Shown: positions 8,909 to 45,411 of the stretch, one piece after another
Position numbering within the stretch: position 1 is the stretch's first letter
Layout of the letters: the number at the start of each line of letters is the position of its first letter
Notes under the pieces: generated by a model
Seen by the model: the letters and a program-made list of their open reading frames with translations, nothing else
The model's database searches: none
Told to the model about the DNA's origin: nothing
Made by a program: the position numbers and the translations under genes
Assembly: GCA_021806135.1 (NCBI GenBank)
Contig: JAJZYB010000006.1
Span: 7,735-71,734, forward strand
Direction: 5' to 3'
Origin: Thermoplasmata archaeon
Lineage (GTDB): Archaea > Thermoplasmatota > Thermoplasmata > Lutacidiplasmatales > UBA184
DNA length: 64,000 bases

Positions 8909-11900
8909 ATGAATAGAAAAGCGCGTGTGAGAGCGGCAACAGCGGTACTAGTGACGCTAATCGCCGTAGTGAGCTTTTCACTAGGGGGCATTGCCTTGCC
9001 CACAACAACCTCAGCAAATACGGGCAGCACTTCAGCAAGTTCGACGGGCGCGGCTACCAGTGTAGTCAACACCCCTTTGGCCCAGATCACCCCGGCGTCC
9101 AACACACAAACGAGCGCCAATTCGCCGTACACTGTAAGCCCAGCGGCAACAACCAATTCTGGTCATGTGATGAGCGCATACATAGGGTTGAGTCCTACCT
9201 CCAGTATCAGCGCTTATCAACAAGAGATCAGCAACCCGGCATCTCCAATGTACAGACACTTCTTAACCGCAGCAGGAGTGGCGTCCAACTTTGGAACTTC
9301 GACCACTCAGTACCAAGCGACTGTCAACTACTTTGAAAGCTATGGATTGAGTGTTCAGACGAGCCCTGAGCGGTTGAGCTTGCAAGTGAGCGGAACAGTT
9401 GCTCAAATGGATGCGGCCTTCAACACTCAGATCGGAGCCTACAACATCGTATACAAGTCTGATGGAATATACAACAATCTGTTCGGACAAAGCAGCGCTG
9501 TAAACGGGACAACATCAAACATAACTATTTATGCAAATAGTGTTCCGACATACTTACCATCCGGACTAGACGTGGCAGGGATATCAGGTGTCGGGCAGAA
9601 CCTTGCGCAGGATGCATTAGCTCTACCGTATAACACGTCGGCATCGTCCGACTTCAATGCGTCTCAATACCAGCGTGGCGGCCTTACCGGCAACGTCGGA
9701 TACAACCACGCATTCCAGGTGGACACAAACACAGGTGCAGGTAACTACACCTGGACCAATCCAACCATGTCTCCAGGACTTGGCAATCTGCTGGGCAACA
9801 CGGGCAACTATCAATTCCTATTCCCCAGTTCGATGCCTACGCTGATGGGGGCCAACAACCTGTGGAGCGGTGGCACTACAATAGCCAGTGAGCCAGATCT
9901 TGGACAGGGCGTGACCATCGCGGTGATAGAGGTGGGGTGCCCACTCATTAGTGATCTGCAGCAGTTTGCCCAGATGACATTCAACAATTCTGGGCAGATC
10001 ACTAGCAGACTCAGTATTATTGGTATAAACAATGCACCATCTGGTGTCTCAATGAATACTTACAATCAATGTGTGAACCGGGGATTCGCTTATGGCTGGA
10101 CATTAGAGACCGAGTTGGACATTGAATATGCAGCCACCATGGCCCCTGACGCACACATAGACGTGATTGCATTGCCGACAGCTGACTTCACGGACTTCTT
10201 CCAGGCGTATACCGACATTGCCAGCTATCTCACATCCGGATCAGCCGTGACGCTTCCATCGTCCGTGGGAACGGTCTTCAACAGCCTAACTGGCTCGGCT
10301 GGTCAGGGCGTTAGCGCGGCAGCGGCTTCCATCAGCATTACCAGCAATTCTTACGGGGAAGGGGAGCTGTACGGACTGTTTGCAGGAACGCCAGTTTACC
10401 AAATACTCTCCAATGAAACACTAGGGACTCTAGCCATACAGGGAGTCACAAATTTCTTTGCTAGTGGAGATACATCATCCATAGGGTTCGGCTCAGGAGG
10501 ACCGCTACAGGCGGGGATGTTTGCACAATCCACCGGAGTGACCTCTGTTGGTGGAGGTATGCTCACCGCCGCAGGTTCCAATGGGGAGTATCCAGCCACC
10601 GGAAACTATGTATATCTACGTTCTCAATTTGGTTACATATTCAATGAGACAGTGGTCCCTGCCAGCGCAGTTGCATCGTTTACATACTGGGCTGAGGGCG
10701 TTTCACTGTGCTTCAACTTCATTTACCCGGGCGACTGTTTCCCCATCATCGGGCTAGGGTTCTTCGCTGGTGGAGGATTCGGAGTCAGTACAACTCAAGC
10801 ACAGCCGTGGTGGCAGAACGCACTGGACACCTACTCGACTGGCGCAAAGATCGTTCCAGTGATTGCCGGTTCAGCCGACTTCAACATGTCGGTGTGGGCC
10901 TTTGGCGGGTGGGACCAGCTGTTCGGGGGAACGTCCTTTGCTACCCCCATAGAAGCTGGATCCTGGGCACTCATAGAGGAACAGTCGATAGTGGCGTTTG
11001 GAAACCAGAAGTTTGGTGACATCAATTCATTGCTGTTTGCTGACCACAACGCGCAGCAGGCTGGAGTGTCGTCCATTGGAACAGATGCATTCATACCCAT
11101 GACTGATCTCGGAACGGGCCCAGAGCCAACCGCGTGCAACATCGTGGCGTTTATTGCGCAGTGCATCCAGTTTTGGGCTCCGGGAAATCCGTTCATCACC
11201 GGACTGGCCAACGCATCATCATTCTACCCGGCGGATCCCAACATCCCGTCGTGGTATGCCACACTCAACAACCCAGCTGGGAGTGGATGGAACTTCCTAC
11301 AAGGGCTTGGACTTCCACAGACAGATGTTCTGGATCAGCAAATAATCGGACAAGTACCTAGTTCGCAGCACGCATTAGCTAACGAACCATTCGCTGTTAC
11401 AGAAGTCACTTCATCTGGAGACATTCCGTTCGGACAACTGACAGGGGGGACCAGCTATACTTTCCAGATCGTACAGTCCAATGGGCTCACTGGGGGAACG
11501 TTCAACGTACAGGCCTATGACGGAGGACTGAACGATGGGACTTATGGCGGAGGAACTACAACCACAATGCAGGTCACCAACGGAGAGTTCACGTTCACGC
11601 CAACATACGCAGTAAATGCAGCTATGCCCCCAAGTGCATCTAGCGAATACGGGTACTTCCTAATTGGCGTGCCTGGCAGCAGTGCGTGGGCGTTCCAAGC
11701 ATTTTCCGTAGTACCGTCGGCAGCTAATGGAACGCTGCAACTGGGCGTACAGACCGAGAATGGACTCATCACCTCCGGTGAAGCGATCGTGCAGATGATC
11801 GGGGCATCCGATCCGGTCGTCGGCGGAGGGGGTCCATCCTACGGAGGATTGGACACCGTCACGCTCAATGGGATGCCGGTCCAGGATGCCGTGGTTACAG

Positions 11901-13570
11901 AGACCGCGGTACAGACCAACTTCGCAATCTTCGACCCCACCATAAACCCGACAATGTTCAGTCCAGGAGCTACGGTCGGTTCATTCCTCACGGATTCCTC
12001 AGGAATGTCTGGATTCTGGAAGAACAGTGTGCTAGAGGGACTTGAACCAATAGGGGTTCCTCAGCCCCTGCCGCTGACACCATCTGTGTTCACATTACAG
12101 GCCAGCTACGGGGGCCTCACATCAAACCCAGTCACGGTGGTTGTTGAACCGGAAGGGGGAAACTTCGTGAACAACCTGGCCCTCAACGCTGCTGGTACAG
12201 CTATCACCGGACAGCTCCAATTTGAAGCAATGCCTTGGGTTAGCAGTGTGAATGTTAGCGTAGGTGGTTCACCTGGTCAATACCAAGTGACAAACTTCGT
12301 GGCCAACACTGTAAAGACTGGAGTCATCAACGTAGATCTGACCAGCCTGCCATCGGGCCCGGTCGTCGTCAGCGCCATAGCGACCGGCGCTAACTTGTAC
12401 CCCAGCTTTGGTTGCGGCGGATGGCTGGAATTCCTAACGTGTGGATTCAGTGATACACCAACAAACTACGCGTTACAGTGGCAGGATCCATTGGTGTTCC
12501 TACCAGCAACATTGACTTCTACCGGAACGAGCACGATCGTATCGGGAGACGTAACGCTGTCATACAGTGGAACGGCAGCCGCCCAGGCCACAGGTACATT
12601 GCGACTAGTCTCCGGGCAAGGGACGCAAACCCTGGCCACGGGTATCTCTGGTGCTTACACACTCAATACTGCAACATTGCCTGATGGATGGTACAGCGCT
12701 GTGTATACTGAGACTGGATACGGGACCTCAACTACGAAGACTGTGACATTCTACACGGACAACGTTGCCGAGTCACTGAACTCAACGATCAGTGCTCTAC
12801 AGCAAGAAGTGCAAAGCCAGAAATCTACAATCTCTGACTTGAACGCTGAACTGTCCTCAGACGCTAGCACGATCAGTTCGCTACAAGCGAGTCTCGCATC
12901 TGCGAACGCAAACATTGGAGAGCTGCAAGCCCAAGTGTCCACGCTGCAGGCACAAGTGTCTGGCCTGCAGGGAACCGTCTCTACCCTGAACGGCCAGTTG
13001 GCCTCCGCACAGTCTAGTATCACCTCGTTGCAAGCCCAGGTCGCCTCCCTCAATGTTACAAGTGCGGCCGACGCGAGTTTGATCACACAGCTAAAGGCAG
13101 ATCTGTCTGCGGCTCAGACCACTATTGGGACACAGCGATCCCAGCTGAGCGCTGACCAGGCGACCATAACTTCTGACAACCAGACAATTCAGACACTGCA
13201 GAACGAGCTGGCACAGAGGAAGACCGCAGCGCCACTACCGGCAGCGGCATCCGCTCAGCCCCCAATTTCCATGATGGAGGTGTTGTTAATTGTGATTGCA
13301 GCACTGGCCATTGGTGGTGGAGTTGGGTATGTTCTTGCACGCCGAAGCAAGAAGGAAAACCAGACCGTCGCCCATGCTGGCGAGCCGGTATCTAGGAGGA
13401 TGACGGCGAGCAGCGTTGAGGGGCTCAGCACACTCATGAAGGCGGCCAAGTTACAGAAGACGCTGACATCCCGAGGAAACTACGTCGAAGCGCAAATGGT
13501 GGGGGTTCGTGTCGAGAGCCTCATGAGGGAGATGGGAGTTGACCGGAGCCAGGTTTACAAGACCAACTGA
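8909..13570 (+). CDS. Membrane-anchored sedolisin/kumamolisin-like (S53) serine peptidase with pro-domain, long C-terminal coiled-coil stalk and C-terminal TM anchor
   Basis: Signal peptide; region HFLTAAGVASNFGTSTTQYQATVNYFESYGLSV...LSLQVSGTVAQMDAAFNTQI resembles the pro-kumamolisin activation domain; GGTSFATPIEAGSWALIEE resembles the catalytic-Ser motif; ~300 aa of Q/S/L/A heptad-like repeats (..ISALQQEVQSQKSTISDLNAELSS..LQAQVSTLQAQVSGLQ..) then hydrophobic TM plus RRSKKE; gene is ~50% GC versus ~68% flanking. Confidence 0.55.
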   Translation: MNRKARVRAATAVLVTLIAVVSFSLGGIALPTTTSANTGSTSASSTGAATSVVNTPLAQITPASNTQTSANSPYTVSPAATTNSGHVMSAYIGLSPTSSISAYQQEISNPASPMYRHFLTAAGVASNFGTSTTQYQATVNYFESYGLSVQTSPERLSLQVSGTVAQMDAAFNTQIGAYNIVYKSDGIYNNLFGQSSAVNGTTSNITIYANSVPTYLPSGLDVAGISGVGQNLAQDALALPYNTSASSDFNASQYQRGGLTGNVGYNHAFQVDTNTGAGNYTWTNPTMSPGLGNLLGNTGNYQFLFPSSMPTLMGANNLWSGGTTIASEPDLGQGVTIAVIEVGCPLISDLQQFAQMTFNNSGQITSRLSIIGINNAPSGVSMNTYNQCVNRGFAYGWTLETELDIEYAATMAPDAHIDVIALPTADFTDFFQAYTDIASYLTSGSAVTLPSSVGTVFNSLTGSAGQGVSAAAASISITSNSYGEGELYGLFAGTPVYQILSNETLGTLAIQGVTNFFASGDTSSIGFGSGGPLQAGMFAQSTGVTSVGGGMLTAAGSNGEYPATGNYVYLRSQFGYIFNETVVPASAVASFTYWAEGVSLCFNFIYPGDCFPIIGLGFFAGGGFGVSTTQAQPWWQNALDTYSTGAKIVPVIAGSADFNMSVWAFGGWDQLFGGTSFATPIEAGSWALIEEQSIVAFGNQKFGDINSLLFADHNAQQAGVSSIGTDAFIPMTDLGTGPEPTACNIVAFIAQCIQFWAPGNPFITGLANASSFYPADPNIPSWYATLNNPAGSGWNFLQGLGLPQTDVLDQQIIGQVPSSQHALANEPFAVTEVTSSGDIPFGQLTGGTSYTFQIVQSNGLTGGTFNVQAYDGGLNDGTYGGGTTTTMQVTNGEFTFTPTYAVNAAMPPSASSEYGYFLIGVPGSSAWAFQAFSVVPSAANGTLQLGVQTENGLITSGEAIVQMIGASDPVVGGGGPSYGGLDTVTLNGMPVQDAVVTETAVQTNFAIFDPTINPTMFSPGATVGSFLTDSSGMSGFWKNSVLEGLEPIGVPQPLPLTPSVFTLQASYGGLTSNPVTVVVEPEGGNFVNNLALNAAGTAITGQLQFEAMPWVSSVNVSVGGSPGQYQVTNFVANTVKTGVINVDLTSLPSGPVVVSAIATGANLYPSFGCGGWLEFLTCGFSDTPTNYALQWQDPLVFLPATLTSTGTSTIVSGDVTLSYSGTAAAQATGTLRLVSGQGTQTLATGISGAYTLNTATLPDGWYSAVYTETGYGTSTTKTVTFYTDNVAESLNSTISALQQEVQSQKSTISDLNAELSSDASTISSLQASLASANANIGELQAQVSTLQAQVSGLQGTVSTLNGQLASAQSSITSLQAQVASLNVTSAADASLITQLKADLSAAQTTIGTQRSQLSADQATITSDNQTIQTLQNELAQRKTAAPLPAAASAQPPISMMEVLLIVIAALAIGGGVGYVLARRSKKENQTVAHAGEPVSRRMTASSVEGLSTLMKAAKLQKTLTSRGNYVEAQMVGVRVESLMREMGVDRSQVYKTN

Positions 13571-34140: not shown

Positions 34141-37100
34141 ATGGTCGATTCCATTGATGGCAGCGGGGGGTGGTGGCGACGCCACGGCCTGGTGGTCTTC
34201 CTCCTGGCCCTGGCCGCCTCCATCTCGCTCATCCTCCGGGTCCTGTACTCCTACCAGCTGATCTCCACCTGTGACGTCTACTATTGCTTCGCCGGGGGAT
34301 CGGACTCCTTCTACCACGCCCGGGTGATGCAGTACATCATCACCTACCACACGAACCTCATCCACGACGCGGCGCTGAACTACCCGTTGGGCTACACCAA
34401 CCCCCGGGAACCGCTGTTCGACTGGATGAACGCCATCTTCGGGATCCTGCTCGCCCCGTTCTTCGGCGGGAACGCGGTCCAGGCGGGAATGTGGGTCCTC
34501 GAGATGCAGCCGGCGATATGGGCCGCCCTCGGGGTCTTCCCCGTCTACCTGCTGGGGAAGGAGGTCTCGTCCCGGCGGATGGGGGTCGTCGCCGCCCTCC
34601 TCTTCCCCCTCATCGTGGGGAACATGGAGAGCACGGTGGCGACCTATGCCAATTACCTGTCCTTCTACGCGTTCTTCGTGGTCCTTTCCCTGGCCCTCTT
34701 CATCCATACGGCCAAGCTCGCGGGGACCCGCCGCTGGGTGGAGAGCTACCGGTCCCCCCGGGCGGTCTGGGCGGGGCTGAAGGCGTTCGCCCGGACCGAG
34801 GAGATGTCCGTCCGCTGGGCGGTCCTCACCGGCGTCACCCTGGGCGCCACCATGCTCGCCTGGCAGGGGTATACCTACGTGGTGGCCGTGGTGGTGATCT
34901 TCCTGGCCGTCGTCCTGGTGGTGGAACGCATCCGGGGCCTGGACTCCTTCGGCCTCTACGTGGTGACGCTCATCGTGGGCACCGTGGGCTTCCTCATGGC
35001 CATGCCCTACTACTACATCCAGGGGGACTTCGGGTACTGGTTCACCGTCCCGCTCTTCCTCTGGTTCGGCGGGCTGTTGGTGCTCCTGCCCTTCCTCTTC
35101 CTGAGGAACGCCCCCTGGGTGGTCTCCGTGCCTGCGCTCTTCCTCTCCGTCCTGGCCGCGGCCGGGGGCCTCTACCTGTACAACCCCGCGTACTTCAGCG
35201 CGGTGCTCACCGGGCAGGGCTACTTCATCAAGAGCCTCATCTACTCCACCGTCGCCGAGGCGCAGGCCCCGAGCTTCGACGCGCTCATCGTGAGCTACGG
35301 GGTGCTCACCTTCTTCCTGGCCTTCGCGGGGCTTGCGCTGTTCCTCTACTATCTCTACGCCCACCGGTTCCGCCGGGAGCACGTCTTCATGGTGATCTTC
35401 AGCCTGCTGGGGATCTACCTCCCGGTCTCGGCGGCGAAGTTCTTCCTCTTAGGATCGCCGGTCTTCGCCCTCCTCCCGGCGGAGGTCGTCCTGGTGGGGA
35501 TCGACCGGCTGGGCCTCCCGCAGATGCGCCGGAACTTCGCCTCCCTCGGGGGAAGGGGGAACCGCTGGCTCGCCCTCCGCCGCTCGGTGAAGCTCCGTCA
35601 CGTGGCGGTGGGCCTCATCCTGATCGCGCTCCTGCTCCCGAACGTCTGGTATGCCACGGACGCGGCCATCCCCTACAACGTGAAGGCCCAGTACAACCAG
35701 CAGGTCTACAACTCGCTTCCGCCGGGGCTGAGGGCCTCTCCCGCGAATGCCACCTCCGCCTACTTCGGCGCCGCGGGGATCCAGGTGGACACTCCCACCC
35801 AGTATGACGAGAGCGGGTACAATTGGTTGGCCCAGCAGGATACGAACATCCTGCCGATCAGTTCGCGTCCCGCCTTCATCAGTTGGTGGGATTACGGGTT
35901 CCAGGCGCTGGATCAGGGCCAGCATCCCACGGTCGCCGACAACTTCCAGGATGGGATCGACCCTTCCGGTAATTTCCTGCTGGCCCAGAACGAGTCAGCC
36001 GCCATCGGGGTCATGGCGGCGGACCTCCTCTACGCCGAGGCCCAGACCTCCGGGAAGCCGTACCTCCCGGCCGCTTTGAACGCGCAACTGGCCAACGACA
36101 ACGTGAACTTGACCCTGCTTCACGCCTACCTGGCCAACCAGACCGCCGACGTGAGGATCGTCCTGGGGAACCCGAACCTCTACGGACCGTTCAACCCTGC
36201 CACCATCAGCCCACTGAGCGCCATGTACAACGTGGTCTCCATCTTCCTGGCCTCCAGCCTCTCGGAGAACCAGGTGGTGAAGGTCTACCAGGACGTCCAG
36301 GCCTACACGGGCTGGAGCATCCGTTACGCCATGTCCAACAGCCTGCTCTTCCCCTCGTCCGGGAGCAACACGGGGATCTTCTACGCCCCGGCGGACCTCA
36401 CCGGCCGGGTGATCAGCTCCGGGGGCATCCCCACGGGATTCTTCCAGGTGACGGTCCTCGGCACGGACGGGAACACCTACATCCTCGGCCAGCAACCCCC
36501 CGGCGTGGGCGTGGCCTCCTACAACATCAGCTACGCCCCCTCGTTCTTCAACAGCATGATCTACCGCTTCTTCGCCGGGTACAACGGGACCGACATCGGT
36601 GCCGGGGCCGGCATCCCCGGGCTGTCGAGCTCGCTGTCGAACTACCAGCCCGAGCCCGGCTGGATGATGCAGCACTTCATGGTGGGGTACCGGACGGCCT
36701 ACTGGTGCCCCTACAAGGACTACCAGGCGCATCCCAACTGCTTCGTCGCGGTGAACTACCAGCAGGCGCTGGCCTACCAGACCGCGGGGATCGGGACGGT
36801 GGACCTCTCGCCGACCTCGTATTACAGCAACGGCGAGACGATCATGGAATACTACCCCGGGGCGACGGTGGTCGGGTCGGTCCGGCTGGCCGACGGGAAG
36901 CCCGCCCCGGGTCTCCGGGTCACCGTGCTGGACCAGTACGGCACCCCCCACATGACCGTCACCACCAACGCCCTGGGCGGCTACTCCCTCATCGCCCCGC
37001 CGGGCCCGGTCTCGGTGGTGGTGAGCTACGGGGCGCTCGACCCGCTCACGCAGGAGGGGGCCTACGTGGTGGCGGAGCAGAACCTCACGATCACCCAGGC

Positions 37101-40100
37101 CCAGGCCTACCAGACGGACCCGGCCCCGGTGCCGGTGAGCTTCTCGCTGCCGTCGAGCACGGTGAGCGGACAGGTCTACTTCAACGAGGCCCGCACGAAC
37201 GCCTTCGCCTCGAACGACACGATCCTTCCGCTCGCCCCGGTCCTCCTGGCGAGCACCACCGGCGGGCTCACCTACCGGGGGACGACCGATGCGAGCGGAT
37301 TCTTCCAGTTCGGCGATGTGGCGCCGGGAAGCTACGCGCTCCAGGTGAAGGTGGGCTCCACCCTGGTGAACTACACCACCGTCGACGTGAGCCGGGGGGG
37401 CCCCATCACCGAGAGCGTCGGTCTCGCCCCCGGCCGGGTCATCGGACAGGTGGTCTCTCGCACCGGCCTGCCCGTCGGCTCCGCCACGGTGAGCCTCGTC
37501 TCTGTGACGAATGGCTCGGTCCGTTCGTTCGTGACGAACGGGACGGGCAACTTCTCCTTCACTCCGTTGGCGCCCGGGAACTACTCCCTCCGGGCCAGCG
37601 TCCCCGGGGGTCTCTCCTCGACGCCGTTGAGGCTCTCCGTGACCAAACTGGGGACCAACCTCACGGAGACCCTCACCGTGGAGGTGCCGGTGACCGTGAC
37701 CCTCTCGGTCGACTACCACGGCTTCCCCCTGCCCAACGTGCCGGTCCGCTTCACCCCCCTGGGGACGGTGAGCAATTCCACCAGCACCGCCAACCAGTCC
37801 TACCTCTTCTTCTCCAACGGCGGCGGGACGATCACCGCCCAGGTCCCCGAGGGGAACTGGTCGGTCTACGCGCTAGCGGCCGTGAACGGGACCTACGTGG
37901 CCGGCATGGGGAACCTCCTGCTGACGGCAGGGCCGGCTTCCGGCTACGCTGGGACCCTGTCCCTCCTCCCCGCGGGTCTGCTCTCCGGCTCCACCTATAT
38001 TGCGGGTACGCCGGCTCCCGAGGGAGGGGTCACCCTCCTCATCCAGAGCGCGCAGGGAGCTGTCCTCCCCGCCTACTCGAACGCCTCCGGCCGCTACCAG
38101 CTCTATCTTCCGGTGGGCAGCTACACGTTCCTCGCAAGCTATCCGGGCACGAGCCCCCTGTCCAAGGTGGCCCTGGGGGGAGTGACCCTTGGTACCTCCC
38201 CGCTCACCCTCAACCTGGACCTGGGGAGCGGGTTCTCCTTCGTCCCCCAGGTGGGCTACCTCAACGCCACCGGTGCCTTCTCTCCCCTTCCGGGGGCCCG
38301 GGTGAACCTCACGGCCCAACCGGGCTCCACCCTCCAGCTCCTCACGGGAGGGGCGGGGAACCTGACCGTCCGGCTACCCCTGGGGAACGTCACCTACTCG
38401 GTCAGCGTCAGCGCACCGGGCTTCCTGTCCTACGCGCGGACGGACCTCACTCCCTCCACCCTCAGCGGGATCAGCCGGGTGACCCTCACCCCGGCCCCGG
38501 TGCCGGTGGCGATCTACGGGCCCGGGCTGCCGGCGGGTTCGAGCCTTCCGCAGTTCAACGTGACCTATCTCCTAAGCGGAGCGACCGTCGATGCGCGGGG
38601 GAACCCGGCAAACTTCTCGCTGGCCCCGGGGAGCTACGTCATCAACGGGTACGCGACCGGCCCGGGCTCCAACCGGACGGTCTACCGGCCCCTGGCCGCT
38701 GTGCCGTTGACCGTGCCGCTGGGCTCCCCGGGGATCACCGTGACGGCCTACCTCTACCCCCAGCGGACGTACGTGGGCAACCTCACGGGCACCTCGCTCG
38801 GCAACGGAACGCTCAACCGGGCCTCCGTGAAGGTCTATGGCCAGCCTGGGAACCTCACCTTCAGTGGGGTGCAGTTCCGGACGAGCTTCCTTGCCCCACC
38901 GGGGAACTATACCATCTGGGCCACCACCCAGGGGCTGTCCGGTTCGTACGCCTTCTTCGGGAACGTGACACTCCTGTCGAACGGCACCCTCTCCCCACGC
39001 CAGCTCAACCTCTCCCGGGCCGGGAGCCTGACGGCGAGACTCCAGACGCTGGGGGGAGTCGCCGTGAACCGGAGCCTTTCGGTCACGGTCCAGGACCTCT
39101 CGGGGGGCTCGGTGGACCTCCGCACTACGGGTAGCGGAGGCCTCGACCTGGTCCTGCCGGCGGGAACCTATCGCTTCCGGGTGAATGCCACCGCTGCGTG
39201 GGCCCCTTCCGGCCCGGCACGGAACTTCACGTTCCAGACGGTGGGGAACGTCACCTGCACGGTGGTGGTCGGGGGCCAGAACTCCAATTGCACGGTCCCG
39301 GTCTCCGCCTCGCTTGCCACCACCACGGTGGACCTGGGATTCCGCGTGGGATCGGCGACACCAGCGGGCTACGGCACCCTCTGGGTCTCCCCCCTGGGCC
39401 AGAACGCTTCGGCCCCCCGGCGCTACTCCGTCGCCAGCACGGGGGTCGCCCTCTCCCTGATCCCGGGAACGTATCGCCTCTACGGTGTCCTGGACGCCTC
39501 CGGGGTGCCCTTGGCGGGGTTCGGGAACCTCACCGTTCCCTACTCCCCGGTGCCCGTGGCCTCCACGCTCTCCTTGGGTCCGGGCTGGACGCAGGTGATC
39601 TCGATCTCCTCTCCGTCGGGCCTGCCGACTCCCTCCGGGGTGAACGTCACCCTCACGGGAGCGGGTACGGCCGGAGGGCTGGCCCTGGGGAAGTACCCCT
39701 GGGGCACCCCGGTGACCCTGGTCCTCCCCTCCGGCTCGTTCTCGGTGAGCCTTACCGCGGTGGTGGCCCCCTACGGCCCGGCCGTGAACCTCACCCGGAC
39801 GTTGAGCCTGACGGTGGCGAGCTCCAACGGGGCCGAGTCCACGTCGCTCTCCCCCGACTACTTCCCCTCCGCGAGCCTCACGTCGTTGGGCCCGACGAGC
39901 CTCACCGCGCTCACCGGGAACGCGTTGAGCGTTCCCCTGGTGGTCCGGAACACGGGTAACCAGGTGCTGAACCTGACCATGAACGGGACTCCATCGAACT
40001 GGGCGATCCGCTTCTCCCCGGGCAACTTCACGCTGGTCCCGGGTGGCACCCAGGCCGTGGAGGCAGAGGTCTTAGTGCCCGCCAATGCGCTCTCCACCCA

Positions 40101-40716
40101 TGCACCGGTGATCCTCTCCCTCTACTCCCGCCCGCTGACGAACGCATCCCTGGCCCAGTACACGGTGCCGTTGACCCTGATCCCGGTCTACGCGGTGGTG
40201 GGGGGGGAGGAGCCGGCCTCGGTCACCGTCTCCTCCACCAGCGTCTACCTCCCGTTCTACGTGGGAGGGGCGGGGAACACCCCGAGCACGGTCAGCATCG
40301 CGGTGGCGAACGGGGCGGTCCTTTACCAGGACGGATGGAACTACCAGATCACCACCAGCTCCGGCGGGACCTTGCCCGGCGCGTTCACCGTGACGCCGGG
40401 CGCTTCTCCGCAGCAGGCCCAGTTCCGACTGCTGGCCAGGACCTCCGCTCCCATCCTGCCCGGCGCGGTGCTGCTCTACGTGCAGGACCTCACGTTCCCG
40501 GGAGCCAGTATCACCCTGCGTCTCCAGCTCCCCTCGGCCACTCCCCTGGCGTTGAACAACAGTCTCGCCGTGACGGGGCCCTCCGTGGGCGGTCAGCCGC
40601 CGGCCGCGTACCTGCCCGTGGCCTACGCTCTGATCTCGGTGGCCCCGGCGATCGCCATCGTGGCCCTGGCCCTGGTCTACCGTTGGCGCAAGCACCGGAG
40701 GTGGGTGCGTCGATGA
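34141..40716 (+). CDS. aglB: Archaeal oligosaccharyltransferase AglB (STT3 homologue) with ~1300-aa C-terminal extension of tandem CarboxypepD_reg/Ig-like domains and terminal TM anchor
   Basis: ~13 TM N-terminal domain with DSFYHAR (D-x-x-Y-x-x-R loop motif) and the catalytic WWDYG motif (FISWWDYGFQALD). Then >=8 repeats of the G.V....G.P..GA.V.L........TT...G.Y.L....G.Y pattern. Ends in VAPAIAIVALALVYRWRKHRRWVRR. Confidence 0.8.
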   Translation: MVDSIDGSGGWWRRHGLVVFLLALAASISLILRVLYSYQLISTCDVYYCFAGGSDSFYHARVMQYIITYHTNLIHDAALNYPLGYTNPREPLFDWMNAIFGILLAPFFGGNAVQAGMWVLEMQPAIWAALGVFPVYLLGKEVSSRRMGVVAALLFPLIVGNMESTVATYANYLSFYAFFVVLSLALFIHTAKLAGTRRWVESYRSPRAVWAGLKAFARTEEMSVRWAVLTGVTLGATMLAWQGYTYVVAVVVIFLAVVLVVERIRGLDSFGLYVVTLIVGTVGFLMAMPYYYIQGDFGYWFTVPLFLWFGGLLVLLPFLFLRNAPWVVSVPALFLSVLAAAGGLYLYNPAYFSAVLTGQGYFIKSLIYSTVAEAQAPSFDALIVSYGVLTFFLAFAGLALFLYYLYAHRFRREHVFMVIFSLLGIYLPVSAAKFFLLGSPVFALLPAEVVLVGIDRLGLPQMRRNFASLGGRGNRWLALRRSVKLRHVAVGLILIALLLPNVWYATDAAIPYNVKAQYNQQVYNSLPPGLRASPANATSAYFGAAGIQVDTPTQYDESGYNWLAQQDTNILPISSRPAFISWWDYGFQALDQGQHPTVADNFQDGIDPSGNFLLAQNESAAIGVMAADLLYAEAQTSGKPYLPAALNAQLANDNVNLTLLHAYLANQTADVRIVLGNPNLYGPFNPATISPLSAMYNVVSIFLASSLSENQVVKVYQDVQAYTGWSIRYAMSNSLLFPSSGSNTGIFYAPADLTGRVISSGGIPTGFFQVTVLGTDGNTYILGQQPPGVGVASYNISYAPSFFNSMIYRFFAGYNGTDIGAGAGIPGLSSSLSNYQPEPGWMMQHFMVGYRTAYWCPYKDYQAHPNCFVAVNYQQALAYQTAGIGTVDLSPTSYYSNGETIMEYYPGATVVGSVRLADGKPAPGLRVTVLDQYGTPHMTVTTNALGGYSLIAPPGPVSVVVSYGALDPLTQEGAYVVAEQNLTITQAQAYQTDPAPVPVSFSLPSSTVSGQVYFNEARTNAFASNDTILPLAPVLLASTTGGLTYRGTTDASGFFQFGDVAPGSYALQVKVGSTLVNYTTVDVSRGGPITESVGLAPGRVIGQVVSRTGLPVGSATVSLVSVTNGSVRSFVTNGTGNFSFTPLAPGNYSLRASVPGGLSSTPLRLSVTKLGTNLTETLTVEVPVTVTLSVDYHGFPLPNVPVRFTPLGTVSNSTSTANQSYLFFSNGGGTITAQVPEGNWSVYALAAVNGTYVAGMGNLLLTAGPASGYAGTLSLLPAGLLSGSTYIAGTPAPEGGVTLLIQSAQGAVLPAYSNASGRYQLYLPVGSYTFLASYPGTSPLSKVALGGVTLGTSPLTLNLDLGSGFSFVPQVGYLNATGAFSPLPGARVNLTAQPGSTLQLLTGGAGNLTVRLPLGNVTYSVSVSAPGFLSYARTDLTPSTLSGISRVTLTPAPVPVAIYGPGLPAGSSLPQFNVTYLLSGATVDARGNPANFSLAPGSYVINGYATGPGSNRTVYRPLAAVPLTVPLGSPGITVTAYLYPQRTYVGNLTGTSLGNGTLNRASVKVYGQPGNLTFSGVQFRTSFLAPPGNYTIWATTQGLSGSYAFFGNVTLLSNGTLSPRQLNLSRAGSLTARLQTLGGVAVNRSLSVTVQDLSGGSVDLRTTGSGGLDLVLPAGTYRFRVNATAAWAPSGPARNFTFQTVGNVTCTVVVGGQNSNCTVPVSASLATTTVDLGFRVGSATPAGYGTLWVSPLGQNASAPRRYSVASTGVALSLIPGTYRLYGVLDASGVPLAGFGNLTVPYSPVPVASTLSLGPGWTQVISISSPSGLPTPSGVNVTLTGAGTAGGLALGKYPWGTPVTLVLPSGSFSVSLTAVVAPYGPAVNLTRTLSLTVASSNGAESTSLSPDYFPSASLTSLGPTSLTALTGNALSVPLVVRNTGNQVLNLTMNGTPSNWAIRFSPGNFTLVPGGTQAVEAEVLVPANALSTHAPVILSLYSRPLTNASLAQYTVPLTLIPVYAVVGGEEPASVTVSSTSVYLPFYVGGAGNTPSTVSIAVANGAVLYQDGWNYQITTSSGGTLPGAFTVTPGASPQQAQFRLLARTSAPILPGAVLLYVQDLTFPGASITLRLQLPSATPLALNNSLAVTGPSVGGQPPAAYLPVAYALISVAPAIAIVALALVYRWRKHRRWVRR

Positions 40717-42090: not shown

Positions 42091-43065
42091 ATGGACCTGT
42101 TCACCCACGTCCTGGTGGCCTACCTGGTCTCCTTCATCGCCTTCGGGCCACAGGCGCCCCTCTACATCGCGGCGGGGGCCCTCGCCGGCGGCCTGCCGGA
42201 CGCGGACATCTTGTTCTTCCCGCTCGCCCGGCGCTATCCACTGCTCGGCCACCACGGGATCACCCACTCCCTGGTCGGAGTGACCGTCATCGCGGCCGGG
42301 GGTGCGATCTTCGCCCCCCTGCTGGCCGGCGGGATCTGGTGGATGTTCTTCCTCGCCATGGAGCTCGGGGGGATCAGCCACATCCTCCTGGACGGTTTCA
42401 CGAACTTCGCCGTCCCCCCTTTCGCGCCCTTCTCCGACCGGCAGGTCCACCTGGACGCCGACCGGGCGGTGAACTTCGCCACGCTCGCGATGACCGCGGT
42501 CTCCTTCACGGTCCTCTTGACGGAGCGGAACCGGACCCCGCCGGAGATCTGGGTGGTCACCGCGTGGGTCCTGGCCGGGATCTACGCGCTCTATCTGACC
42601 GTGCGGGGACTCGGGCGGCTCCGGGTGGAGGGGATCCGCAAGCGCGAGGGCTACACGGGGGTCATCCCCAGCGGGAACCCCCTGCGATGGACCCTCATCG
42701 ACGAGCAGGTCCGACCGGAGGGCACCGCGGTGCGCTTCCGCCGTTACACGCTCGGACGGGGTTTCACGGGGCCGGCGCATGAGCTCGAGGTCCACCCGGC
42801 CATGACCGCTTCCGGACCGGTCGTGGGGGGCCAGGAGGCGATGGACCGCTCGTACCCGGCCGCCATGTCCCGGAGCCGGTTCCTCTCCCGGTCCTACTTC
42901 TTCGCCGAGGTGACGCCCGCGCCGGGGGCCTTCGAGGTCTTCTGGTACTCCCTGGAGTTCGAGTCCCTGGGCCGGACGGCGGGGGTGCTCGCCCGGGTCG
43001 ACGCCGCGAGCGGCAGCGTGGAGACCCGGACGGTCTGGCGCCGTCCCCCCGGCGGAGGCCGGTAA
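42091..43065 (+). CDS. Membrane-bound metal-dependent hydrolase (DUF457/YdjM family)
   Basis: N-terminal HVLVAYLV..., HHGITHSL, HILLDGFT motifs and multiple TM segments. Confidence 0.55.
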   Translation: MDLFTHVLVAYLVSFIAFGPQAPLYIAAGALAGGLPDADILFFPLARRYPLLGHHGITHSLVGVTVIAAGGAIFAPLLAGGIWWMFFLAMELGGISHILLDGFTNFAVPPFAPFSDRQVHLDADRAVNFATLAMTAVSFTVLLTERNRTPPEIWVVTAWVLAGIYALYLTVRGLGRLRVEGIRKREGYTGVIPSGNPLRWTLIDEQVRPEGTAVRFRRYTLGRGFTGPAHELEVHPAMTASGPVVGGQEAMDRSYPAAMSRSRFLSRSYFFAEVTPAPGAFEVFWYSLEFESLGRTAGVLARVDAASGSVETRTVWRRPPGGGR

Positions 43066-43066
43066 T

Positions 43067-43075
43067 CTTTTATGG
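43067..43075 (+). promoter_or_regulatory. TATA-like box (CTTTTATGG) ~27 nt upstream of tRNA-His; the T-tract may also terminate the upstream gene
   Basis: AT-rich element directly after the stop at 43065 and at the canonical archaeal distance from the tRNA 5' end. Confidence 0.45.
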
Positions 43076-43097
43076 CCCTTCCCTCTCGCGCGCCCGC

Positions 43098-43204
43098 GGC
43101 CGGGATGGGGTAGTTTGGTTATCCTGGGGGACTGTGGATCCCTCGACCCGGGTTCAAAGGGAGCGGGGGACCACCCCCCGCTCCGGAGAATCTCGGTCCC
43201 GGCC
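43098..43204 (+). tRNA. tRNA-His (anticodon GUG) with encoded G-1 and a ~32-nt intron in the T-loop (between positions ~59/60)
   Basis: Hand fold: G-1, acceptor GCCGGGA/TCCCGGC, discriminator C73. D-arm GGGT-AGTTTGGTTA-TCCT. Anticodon stem GGGGA/TCCCT with loop CTGTGGA (U33, G34U35G36, G37). Variable CGAC. T-stem CCGGG/CTCGG with loop TTCAAA|T, which is restored only after removing GGGAGCGGGGGACCACCCCCCGCTCCGGAGAA (43159..43190), itself a perfect hairpin. Confidence 0.6.
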
Positions 43205-43244
43205 CTCCGGGTCTCTCCTTCGCGGACGCCCGGGTCCCCGGGGT

Positions 43245-44030
43245 TCACGACGACCGGGGGCTCCCGGCCCCGGGGCGGCCGGGGTGCGCGGGGCGCTTGG
43301 GGTGGCCTCTTCCCGCCCCCACTTTGCCGGGAGGGGACGTCGGGGGGCTGGGGGTGCCCAGGATCCCGGGAAGGGCCTCGGGAAGCCCGTCTAAGGCATA
43401 GTCCGCCCACTTGGCCCCCCAGCGCTTCATGTCGGCCGGGGTGATCGACCAACCCGGCAGATGGCATGCCCGGCCCACCGGGACGACCCCGGGTACGGTC
43501 TGCGCGACCTCCATGTCGAACCGGGAGTCCCCCACAAGGACCATGGGCAGGTCCGGCCATCGGGCGCGGTAGGTCCGCAGATGGACATCCTTCGTCCCCT
43601 GGCCGGCCCCCTGGACCTCCTCGAAGAAGAACCCGAGCCCCTCGCGTTCCAGGAGGAGCTCCGCCATCTCCCTCTCACCGCCGGTGGAGACGACCTGGAC
43701 GTACCCCTGGCGGTCGAGGGCCTTGAGAAGCCGGGGGACCTCAGGGAAGAAGGTGGCGTGGGCATAGGCGCCCTTCACCTTGGCCTCGTGGAACTTCCGG
43801 GTGGCGGCCAGCTGTTCGAAGGGGGTGGCCTCCGGGTAGAGCTCCTTGACCTGAAGCTCGAAGGGCTTCCCCGTGGTCCGCAGGTAGTCCACCTCGGCCT
43901 TGGGCCGGGGGGTCCCGAACGCCTCGTTCAGCACCTGGCCGGCGGTGACCGAGACCTGGCGCATATCGTCCAGCAGGGTGCCGTCGAGGTCGAAGACGAT
44001 CACGGCCGGGGCCCGGCGCGCATCAGGCAC
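43245..44030 (-). CDS. HAD-superfamily hydrolase (phosphatase)
   Basis: VIVFDLDGTLLD (motif I), STGG (motif II region), VGDSRFD (motif IV); C-terminal tail of ORF probably over-extended. Confidence 0.6.
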   Translation of the reverse strand: MPDARRAPAVIVFDLDGTLLDDMRQVSVTAGQVLNEAFGTPRPKAEVDYLRTTGKPFELQVKELYPEATPFEQLAATRKFHEAKVKGAYAHATFFPEVPRLLKALDRQGYVQVVSTGGEREMAELLLEREGLGFFFEEVQGAGQGTKDVHLRTYRARWPDLPMVLVGDSRFDMEVAQTVPGVVPVGRACHLPGWSITPADMKRWGAKWADYALDGLPEALPGILGTPSPPTSPPGKVGAGRGHPKRPAHPGRPGAGSPRSS

Positions 44031-44130: not shown

Positions 44131-45411
44131 ATGCATCCGAGCGAGGCCATCCGGGGCCGCCGCTCCACCCTTCTGGAGGGACGGCGCATCGTGGTGGGCG
44201 TCTCCGGGTCCATCGCGGCGGTGGAGGTCCCCCGCCTGCTGAGGGAGCTGCTCCGGCACGGCGCCACGGTGGACTGCGTGCTGAGCCCGGAAGCGCTCAG
44301 GCTCGTGAGCCGGGAGGCGGTGCACTTCGCGCTGGGCCATCCACCGGTGACGGAGCTCACCGGAGCGGTGGAGCACATCCGCCTCTTGGGCCCCGGACCG
44401 GGCCAGGCCGACCTCCTGCTGCTCGCGCCCGCCACTGCGAACACCCTGGGGAAGATCGCCCACGGCATCGACGACACGCCGGTCACCACCTGCGCGGCGG
44501 TGGCCCTGGGGAACGGCCTGCCCGTCCTGGTGGCCCCGGCCATGCACCGGGACATGGGAAGGAATCCCTTCGTTGAGGAGAATATCCATAGGCTCCAGGC
44601 GCAGGGGGTCTCGTTCATCCCCCCCGTCCGGGAGGAAGGGGAGGAGAAGATCCCCGCACCGGAAGTGGTGGCCGCCCATGTGCTCCACCGGATGGCCCGG
44701 GGTCCCTGGGCGGGCCGGTCCGTGGTCGTGGTGGGCGGGGCCTCCGTGGCTCCCGTGGACTCGGTGCGGTACCTGGGGAACGCCAGTTCCGGTCGGATGG
44801 CCCTGGAGCTCTCCACCCAGGCCTTCTTCCGGGGGGCCAGCGTGGCGACCTGGCTGGGCGACGCGAAGGTCCCCATACCCTCCTTCCTTCCCACCGTCCG
44901 CCGCTTCCGGACCCTCACGGACCTGCGGGAGCTGGTGACCACCTACGCCGAGGAGCTCCGGTCGGCTTCGGCCGTCTTCGTCCCCGCCGCGCTATCGGAC
45001 TACGCGGCGGAGGCCCAGCCCGGGAAGATCTCCTCGGAGGAGACCCCCTCCCTCACCTTGAGGCTCCACCGGGAGGAGAAGCTCCTGCCCCGGCTGCGGT
45101 CGGCCGCCCCGCCACCGACGCTCTTGGTGGGGTTCAAGCTCGAACCGGGCAGCCGCGCGGAGCCCCTGACGACCCGGGCCCGGGGCGCGCTGGAGCGGTA
45201 CGGGCTCGACGCGGTGGTGGCGAACGGGCTGGAGGCCGTGGGAGGGGAGGAAACGGTGGTCACGCTGGTCCGGGCGGAGGGCAGGCCCCACCGCTATCAG
45301 GGAACGAAAGGGCTCGTGGCGGGGAAGCTCCTGGACGACCTCGCCGGGGACCTGCTTCCGCCGGTCAGTGGGGGAGCCCCAGGACGATCCCCAGGATCCC
45401 GTTCACGATGA
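44131..45411 (+). CDS. coaBC: Bifunctional phosphopantothenoylcysteine decarboxylase/phosphopantothenate--cysteine ligase
   Basis: N-terminal flavoprotein domain (RIVVGVSGSIAA) and C-terminal DFP/CoaB domain (VGGASVAPVDSVRYLGNASSGRMA). Confidence 0.8.
   Translation: MHPSEAIRGRRSTLLEGRRIVVGVSGSIAAVEVPRLLRELLRHGATVDCVLSPEALRLVSREAVHFALGHPPVTELTGAVEHIRLLGPGPGQADLLLLAPATANTLGKIAHGIDDTPVTTCAAVALGNGLPVLVAPAMHRDMGRNPFVEENIHRLQAQGVSFIPPVREEGEEKIPAPEVVAAHVLHRMARGPWAGRSVVVVGGASVAPVDSVRYLGNASSGRMALELSTQAFFRGASVATWLGDAKVPIPSFLPTVRRFRTLTDLRELVTTYAEELRSASAVFVPAALSDYAAEAQPGKISSEETPSLTLRLHREEKLLPRLRSAAPPPTLLVGFKLEPGSRAEPLTTRARGALERYGLDAVVANGLEAVGGEETVVTLVRAEGRPHRYQGTKGLVAGKLLDDLAGDLLPPVSGGAPGRSPGSRSR

Follow-up and report, generated by a model that had tools for sequence, protein, structure and literature searches.

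Can a tRNA gene whose T-loop is interrupted by a hairpin be the working gene of its organism, and if so, in which lineage and by what kind of processing? This question is raised by the locus 43098..43204 (+) of the window, as we call the whole 64-kb stretch of DNA that was analyzed. The locus is a genuine tRNA-His(GUG) gene, the T-loop of which carries a 32-nt bulge-helix-bulge (BHB) intron. We assign a probability of roughly 0.9 to the reading that it encodes the functional tRNA-His(GUG) of a high-G+C Thermoplasmata archaeon, with its own BRE/TATA promoter, a precursor tRNA of ~107 nt, and a 32-nt intron at position 59/60.

Structure of the tRNA-His gene

When the segment 43159..43190 is taken out, a perfect 75-nt cloverleaf is obtained, which ARAGORN identifies in the in silico spliced sequence as tRNA-His(gtg). 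The additional nucleotide G-1 (43098) stands opposite the discriminator base C73 (43204), and this G:C pair is present in 98/98 sequences of the alignment described below. The acceptor stem is formed by 7 bp between 43099-43105 and 43197-43203, and in the D-arm G10-G12 pair with C23-U25, with A14, G18, G19, and A21 in place. The anticodon stem (43127-43131 with 43139-43143) closes a 7-nt loop, C U G U G G A (43132-43138), that contains U33, the GUG anticodon (43134-43136), and a purine at position 37 (G37); the variable region consists of 4 nt. The T-stem is formed by CCGGG (43148-43152) and CUCGG (43192-43196), and a normal 7-nt T-loop, UUCAAAU, arises only after the removal of 43159..43190, upon which all of the tertiary bases U8, A14, G18, G19, A21, G53, U54, U55, C56, A58, and C61 are present. 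Both the assignment as tRNA-His(GUG) with G-1:C73, a D-arm, and U33/G37, and the dependence of the T-arm on splicing had been put forward in a preliminary description of the locus; the former agrees with the sequence and with the ARAGORN result for the spliced form, and the latter with the restored UUCAAAU loop and 75-nt cloverleaf.

The 5' exon (43098..43158, +) comprises G-1, the 5' strand of the acceptor stem, the D-arm, the anticodon arm, the variable region, the 5' strand of the T-stem, and T-loop positions 54-59, and its columns are invariant or nearly so in the 98 aligned sequences. The 3' exon (43191..43204, +) comprises U60, the 3' strands of the T-stem (43192-43196) and of the acceptor stem (43197-43203), and C73. 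The CCA end is not encoded at the 3' end of the gene.

The intron and its bulge-helix-bulge motif

The 32-nt intron, GGGAGCGGGGGACCACCCCCCGCTCCGGAGAA (43159..43190, +), the excision of which restores the cloverleaf, can be drawn together with the T-arm as a BHB motif with flanking helices on either side (the hBHBh' form). The outer helix H1 is the T-stem itself, with positions 49-53 (CCGGG, 43148..43152, +) forming 5 bp with 43192-43196. In the central helix H2, the exon strand U54 U55 C56 A57 (43153..43156, +) faces the intron strand GGAG (43185..43188, +), and in the window this helix consists of U·G, U-A, and C-G pairs plus one A·G mismatch at pair 57 (3 pairs of 4). The remainder of the intron forms the hairpin H3 (43160..43184, +), in which 43160-43169 make 10 bp with 43175-43184 around the 5-nt loop ACCAC (43170-43174). 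Two 3-nt bulges lie on opposite strands, with the 4-position central helix between them: the 5' bulge AA|G (A58, A59, and the first intron base; 43157..43159, +) and the 3' bulge AA|U (the last two intron bases and U60; 43189..43191, +).

Archaeal BHB motifs are cleaved after the second nucleotide of each bulge. From this rule and the geometry of the motif, the splice site is predicted at 59/60, with cuts at 43158|43159 and 43190|43191, and such cuts give exactly the T-loop UUCAAAU and the 75-nt cloverleaf. Because of an A-run, shifts of 1-2 nt yield an identical spliced product in the window, and the intron boundaries had initially been left ambiguous by 1-3 nt; this ambiguity is now settled at 59/60 by the BHB geometry and by the relatives, most of whose introns end in AC rather than AA, so that only 59/60 restores UUCAAAU there.

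The motif has the geometry of a canonical intron, since within its 7-base loop, closed by 5 bp, position 59 occupies the sixth place, the one taken by position 37 in the anticodon arm. The likeness to the canonical 37/38 intron includes the four loop bases that pair with the 3' end of the intron, the hairpin formed by the intron, and the two 3-nt bulges cut after the second base; the difference is that the T-arm, not the anticodon arm, is the host. The T-arm with its intron would hence be a structural copy of the canonical intron-containing anticodon arm.

Minimum-energy folding recovered the BHB in just 2/98 structures, and therefore the motif was judged by register and covariation. The fold constrained to the BHB lies on average 3.8 kcal/mol above the minimum across the 98 sequences (4.9 kcal/mol for the window). 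This low thermodynamic preference is a caveat rather than a refutation: the enzyme recognizes the motif, and such a preference is not among its formal defining features.

Gene neighborhood and orthology

The tRNA-His gene is preceded by a gene for a YdjM-family membrane protein (42091..43065, +) and followed by a HAD hydrolase gene (43245..44030, -) and by coaBC (44131..45411, +), past which lie a MarC-family gene on the minus strand and the genes for SucC/SucD. Syntenic contigs were reached via CoaBC homologues. The homologues of HAD, CoaBC, and SucC adjoin a tRNA-His gene in ~90 loci as they do in the window, with CoaBC proteins 53-68% identical to that of the window; since this order (tRNA-His / HAD / CoaBC / SucC) is kept, the tRNA-His genes are regarded as orthologues.

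One relative with a 68% identical CoaBC (L010:1-1100) shows no tRNA between the upstream gene and the HAD gene. In another one of similar divergence (L066), the tRNA gene is found beside the YdjM gene, with the HAD and CoaBC genes ~5 kb away, and therefore the former case looks like a local rearrangement in a sub-lineage rather than a loss of the tRNA.

Conservation and covariation of the intron

To find further carriers, one genome per species was scanned with a pattern composed of the anticodon loop, the T-loop sequence GGTTCRAA, a gap of 12-42 nt, and the acceptor end CCGGCC. At least 119 loci matched. Species-representative genomes yielded at least 95 additional distinct sequences with the same intron site, and nearly all carry the title "Thermoplasmata archaeon". 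In the archaeal matches listed, the gap is always located inside the T-loop; the bacterial matches listed are tRNA-His genes of the usual type, which lack an intron and by chance have CCGGCC downstream. Three "bacterium" bins were counted as mislabelled among the intron-carrying matches listed.

Matches titled only "bacterium" include L039, L115, L098, L107, and L122. In two of them (L039 and L115) the tRNA-His is the archaeal one with the intron, the L039 copy being identical to that of a Thermoplasmata bin, and both are probably mislabelled archaeal bins. The other three contain true bacterial tRNA-His genes matched by chance.

The alignment comprises 98 distinct pre-tRNA sequences (the window and 97 other relatives). 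Relatives whose CoaBC is 81-84% identical have a 107-nt unit with 97-98% identity and exons without any change; all substitutions fall in the intron hairpin and its loop, and the flanks diverge except for the upstream TCTTTTATGG box. The exons stay near-invariant down to 53% CoaBC identity. The intron length varies between 28 and 37 nt, with 32 nt in 72/98 sequences; 32 nt is also the commonest length among the 185 distinct introns obtained when metagenome loci are included (139/185).

Each helix of the motif is retained. All H1 cells (100%) are paired across the 98 sequences, and the exon strand of H2 is UUCA in every one of them. The facing intron strand is most often TGAG (54 sequences) or GGAG (25), followed by GGAA and TGAA (4 each), TGGA and GGGA (3 each), AGAG (2), and CGAG, TGGG, and GGGG (1 each). 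The G opposite C56 is invariant and only purines occur opposite U54 and U55, so that pairs 54, 55, and 56 are formed in 98/98 sequences; pair 57 is formed in 62/98 and mismatched in 36/98. Pairs 54-56 of H2 are likewise formed in all 185 distinct introns, and 4 pairs in 122 of them. When the intron strand is slid by -4 to +4 positions, 3 or more H2 pairs are obtained in no more than 37/98 sequences. The 5' bulge is AA|N in 98/98 and the 3' bulge A[C/G/A/T]|T in 96/98 sequences. In H3, the first pair is unpaired in 25/98 sequences, and 7/8 proximal pairs show compensatory changes on both sides.

Pairs were also counted over the whole structure, which was specified as the cloverleaf plus the BHB, with 500 shuffles as a control. 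A total of 95.8% of cells are paired, versus 90.9% in shuffles and 25-67% in slid registers, and 155 cells are changed on both sides, versus 47.8 in shuffles; 0/500 shuffles reached any observed score. The BHB at the junctions can be drawn with both of its 3-nt bulges, is conserved, and covaries, in line with the original proposal of a 32-nt hairpin intron at a non-canonical T-loop position.

The distal four pairs of H3 (GGGG/CCCC) are G-C in 83-95 of the 98 sequences, whereas the proximal pairs covary freely. The GGGG/CCCC cap and the 32-nt length represent more constraint than the BHB motif needs.

A recent gain of the intron by transposition, as opposed to ancient inheritance, has a precedent in Thermoproteales, where transposition between tRNA genes was inferred (Fujishima 2010, as cited in PMC4090602), and independent gains are made plausible by a tRNA-His of Aenigmatarchaeota (L057) with a 59/60 intron of unrelated sequence. 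Nonetheless, the intron is present in orthologous syntenic genes of Thermoplasmata at CoaBC identities between 53 and 92%, its modal length staying at 32 nt, and no second copy of the intron sequence was found within the 64-kb window. We consider recent transposition to be very unlikely; one old gain followed by vertical descent within Thermoplasmata fits the data.

Promoter and evidence for a working gene

An element (43062..43073, +) consisting of a BRE-like part and the TATA-like box TCTTTTAT (43066-43073) precedes the gene, with the box ~25-32 nt upstream of G-1. Its BRE-like part is purine-rich, and the whole element is identical in close relatives. Among ~100 distinct upstream sequences, A is dominant at -36..-34 and T at -31..-28 (TTTT) against a G+C-rich background; the TATA-like box of the window sits 1 nt nearer to the gene. 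Archaeal promoters are typified by a well-established BRE/TATA consensus, and by comparison with it we infer that the element is the promoter of the tRNA gene. The position of the TATA box implies that transcription would start at G-1 or a few nucleotides from it, with a very short 5' leader or none.

In the 50 nt upstream of the gene at ~100 loci (43048-43097 in the window), T is also present at -12 in 86/100 and G at -2 in 94/100 sequences.

Among 241 million metagenome records, exact intron-less exons, searched as 41 nt across the junction, were matched 0 times; with a gap of 20-45 nt between them, they matched at least 120 metagenome contigs, in which the gene neighborhood is usually that of the window. 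ARAGORN found no second tRNA-His gene in the window or in any fetched locus, although one with a different body sequence may exist elsewhere in the genome. We argue that the locus is the working tRNA-His gene of its clade, since the exons are invariant, the intron covaries, the promoter is conserved, and no intron-less allele was found; it would be transcribed and spliced.

The opposite reading, a dead tRNA-His pseudogene broken by the insertion of a G+C-rich palindromic element, would explain why the insert is a near-perfect 10-bp G+C-rich hairpin and why neither Rfam nor ARAGORN recognizes an intact gene. It is highly improbable and effectively already refuted by the conservation pattern: the exons are invariant over ~100 species-level genomes, the insert evolves by compensatory changes and always occupies exactly the same site with the BHB register kept, and the promoter is conserved. 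The metagenome records contain no intron-less copy with the same exons, and the window has no further copy of the hairpin sequence.

Taxonomic assignment

The intron in the T-loop had at first been taken as a phylogenetic clue to Thermoproteales or another TACK lineage. The present data contradict this view. The nearest species representative among the matches listed is Thermoplasmata archaeon YP4.bin26 (L124), with 92% identity for HAD, 89% for SucC, and 82% for CoaBC. The archaeal matches listed are almost all titled "Thermoplasmata archaeon", with one each from Methanomassiliicoccales, Methanobacteriota, and Aenigmatarchaeota and none from TACK, although the scan pattern fixed the acceptor end CCGGCC of this lineage and tRNA-His genes with other acceptor stems (e.g., those of TACK) lie outside its scope, which limits claims on where else such introns occur and leaves the identification of the window unaffected. 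The G+C content of the window is 67.7%. Upstream of the tRNA, at 34141-40716 (+), the window encodes a 2191-aa AglB/STT3 oligosaccharyltransferase fused to many CarboxypepD_reg repeats, and close relatives keep the same protein with 2190 aa; AglB/STT3 oligosaccharyltransferases are a hallmark of archaea. Since the syntenic relatives and nearly all intron carriers are titled "Thermoplasmata archaeon", the lineage of the window is Thermoplasmata, not Thermoproteales/TACK.

In full, the earlier reading would make this a Thermoproteales/TACK genome with a relaxed non-canonical intron processed by a heterotetrameric (alpha-beta)2 endonuclease. Its background is sound: non-canonical introns, those at 59/60 included, are most abundant in Crenarchaeota and Thaumarchaeota (PMC8450103; PMC4090602), and the tRNAscan-SE 2.0 census lists 531 of them in Crenarchaeota and 107 in Thaumarchaeota versus 25 in 144 euryarchaeal genomes (PMC8450103, Table S7). 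For the window, however, it is hardly credible, given neighboring genes with 82-92% protein identity to the Thermoplasmata bin, the lack of TACK genomes among the archaeal matches listed, and the form of the motif itself. Relaxed introns (hBH, HBh', or BHL), the single-bulge type of which is typical of Thermoproteales, have one bulge lost or looped and hence need a broad-specificity (alpha-beta)2 or epsilon2 endonuclease; here both 3-nt bulges are kept in all 98 sequences, and the single-bulge hBH and HBh' forms do not occur.

Performance of gene finders

The expectation that standard scans may miss the gene proved correct. With the genomic sequence, ARAGORN reports a wrong 90-nt model (43099..43188), and over 107 related loci it missed the gene in 56 and gave a wrong span in the remaining 51. 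The Rfam tRNA model has no match in the whole window at the gathering threshold; at E<=10, the region 42950..43350 likewise contains no tRNA, just chance matches to FinP and DUF3800-XI. The Rfam covariance-model result on the unspliced gene is uninformative. The Thermoplasmata group, which is widespread in soil, peat, and acid environments, may seem to be without tRNA-His unless an intron-aware archaeal search is used.

The 90-nt model that ARAGORN reports on unspliced DNA, in which a tRNA-His at 43099..43188 has an extended variable arm and uses the hairpin as its T-arm, can be dismissed as practically impossible, because its acceptor stem has 2 mismatches and a G·U pair and lacks G-1:C73, its "T-loop" is ACCAC, without UUC, the true T-loop sequence GGTTCAAA falls in its "variable arm", the near-invariant downstream TCTCGGTCCCGGCC is ignored in favor of a hairpin whose loop and stem vary freely among relatives, and the reported span shifts from 74 to 94 nt between relatives when the locus is not missed altogether (56/107).

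Proposed processing of the precursor

For the intron-containing tRNA-His, the following pathway is proposed. Transcription from the BRE/TATA promoter would produce a precursor of ~107 nt, in which the T-arm and the intron would form the BHB, with the T-stem as the outer helix, U54-A57 and the 3' end of the intron as the central helix, and the remainder of the intron as the hairpin. The splicing endonuclease EndA would cut both bulges, and the ligase RtcB would join the exons into a 75-nt tRNA from G-1 to C73 with the T-loop UUCAAAU; the spliced tRNA-His is predicted to read ...GGGUUCAAAUCUCGG... across the junction. CCA would be added afterwards, giving a predicted mature end ...UUCAAAUCUCGGUCCCGGCC(CCA). 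U54-C56 are engaged by the intron until it is excised, and therefore T-loop modification and tertiary folding would have to follow splicing; before that, the precursor presumably cannot make T-loop/D-loop contacts.

An EndA gene was searched for in the window and in the 240 fetched loci (~1.7 Mb), with a regular expression for the catalytic motif and by tblastn with five EndA sequences, each of which had been checked against a PDB alignment or derived from one, and none was found. According to reviews, the alpha4 and alpha'2 enzymes that are typical of Euryarchaeota need a strict BHB at the canonical position, and non-canonical introns are cut only by the (alpha-beta)2 and epsilon2 enzymes (PMC4090602, PMC3239211, PMC5829648). 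We expect that a strict enzyme would accept a BHB with both bulges kept, although the A57·G mismatch in about a third of the sequences is a counterpoint.

Comparison with known introns

The site 59/60 is on published lists of non-canonical intron positions (PMC4090602), and the kind of intron described here is already known, with a mechanism that is not new; the novelty lies in the present member and in how far it is conserved. Our literature search found no description of a T-loop intron in a Thermoplasmata tRNA-His.

The closest structural parallels come from ARMAN-2, where pre-tRNA-Cys contains a 59/60 intron and pre-tRNA-Pro contains 53/54 and 59/60 introns with strict BHB motifs (PMC3239211). 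In both systems the intron is located at the T-loop site 59/60 with the T-stem as a flanking helix, and the tRNA-Pro case is a strict hBHBh', as here (PMC3239211). ARMAN-2, however, belongs to DPANN and carries these introns in tRNAs other than tRNA-His, whereas the present case concerns tRNA-His of Thermoplasmata; moreover, 56% of its tRNA genes are disrupted and it has a broad-specificity epsilon2 endonuclease (PMC3239211), whereas a single gene was examined here. The intron of the window is conserved over ~100 species-level genomes.

The introns of Thermoproteales and Thaumarchaeota (Sugahara 2008; Fujishima 2010; PMC8450103) are alike in their non-canonical positions, which in PMC4090602 include 59/60. 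They differ in being numerous per genome, often several per gene and often with relaxed motifs, and in showing signs of transposition, whereas we describe a single, stable, vertically inherited two-bulge intron in a euryarchaeal class.

Within the same class, the tRNAscan-SE 2.0 census gives 6 non-canonical introns in 3 Methanomassiliicoccales genomes and 1 in 5 Thermoplasmatales genomes, as counts without the tRNA or position in the table cited (PMC8450103, Table S7). Among our matches, the Methanomassiliicoccales locus L094 has a 37-nt intron at 59/60 of tRNA-His.

This locus (L094:1067-1178, +) and the Aenigmatarchaeota locus (L057:3779-3889, -) both have tRNA-His introns at 59/60 that are 37 nt each and unrelated in sequence to that of the window, although they share the UGAA/UGGA strand of the central helix. 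They suggest either that BHB introns tend to be held at the 59/60 site or that the origin of the intron predates the clade studied.

Possible role and significance of the intron

The group provides a clean, deeply conserved example of an intron at a non-canonical position with a canonical-looking BHB in a euryarchaeal class; in reviews, Euryarchaea are described as having introns at the canonical position only. A further step would be to regard the 59/60 intron as an old, obligatory feature of the only tRNA-His of the whole Thermoplasmata clade, kept by selection rather than inertia. We hold this only tentatively and consider it rather unlikely; the idea comes from the absence of an intron-less allele among the sequences seen, the 32-nt length in about three-fourths of the variants, and the conserved GGGG/CCCC cap. 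By the fixed length and the invariant GGGG/CCCC, an extra function of the intron is likewise conceivable, at odds clearly below even. Candidate roles may include ordering T-loop modification or folding, providing a stable (circular) intron RNA, and keeping integrating elements out of the 3' half of the gene.

If the obligatory feature is real, splicing at a non-canonical position would be routine in a euryarchaeal lineage whose endonuclease is presumably of the strict alpha'2 or alpha4 type, which would contradict the textbook rule that links the type of enzyme to the position of the intron. Two questions find a natural test case in this group: do strict-type splicing endonucleases act at any site where a BHB is formed, and why are certain tRNA introns never lost?

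Other features of the window

Between 8900 and 13600 of the window, the G+C content dips to 50-57%, versus 65-73% elsewhere in the window. The dip coincides with a single ORF of 1553 aa (8909..13570, +), the product of which has a Pro-kumamolisin activation domain, with coiled-coil-like matches at its C-terminus; it may be a secreted protease of the sedolisin type that was acquired horizontally.
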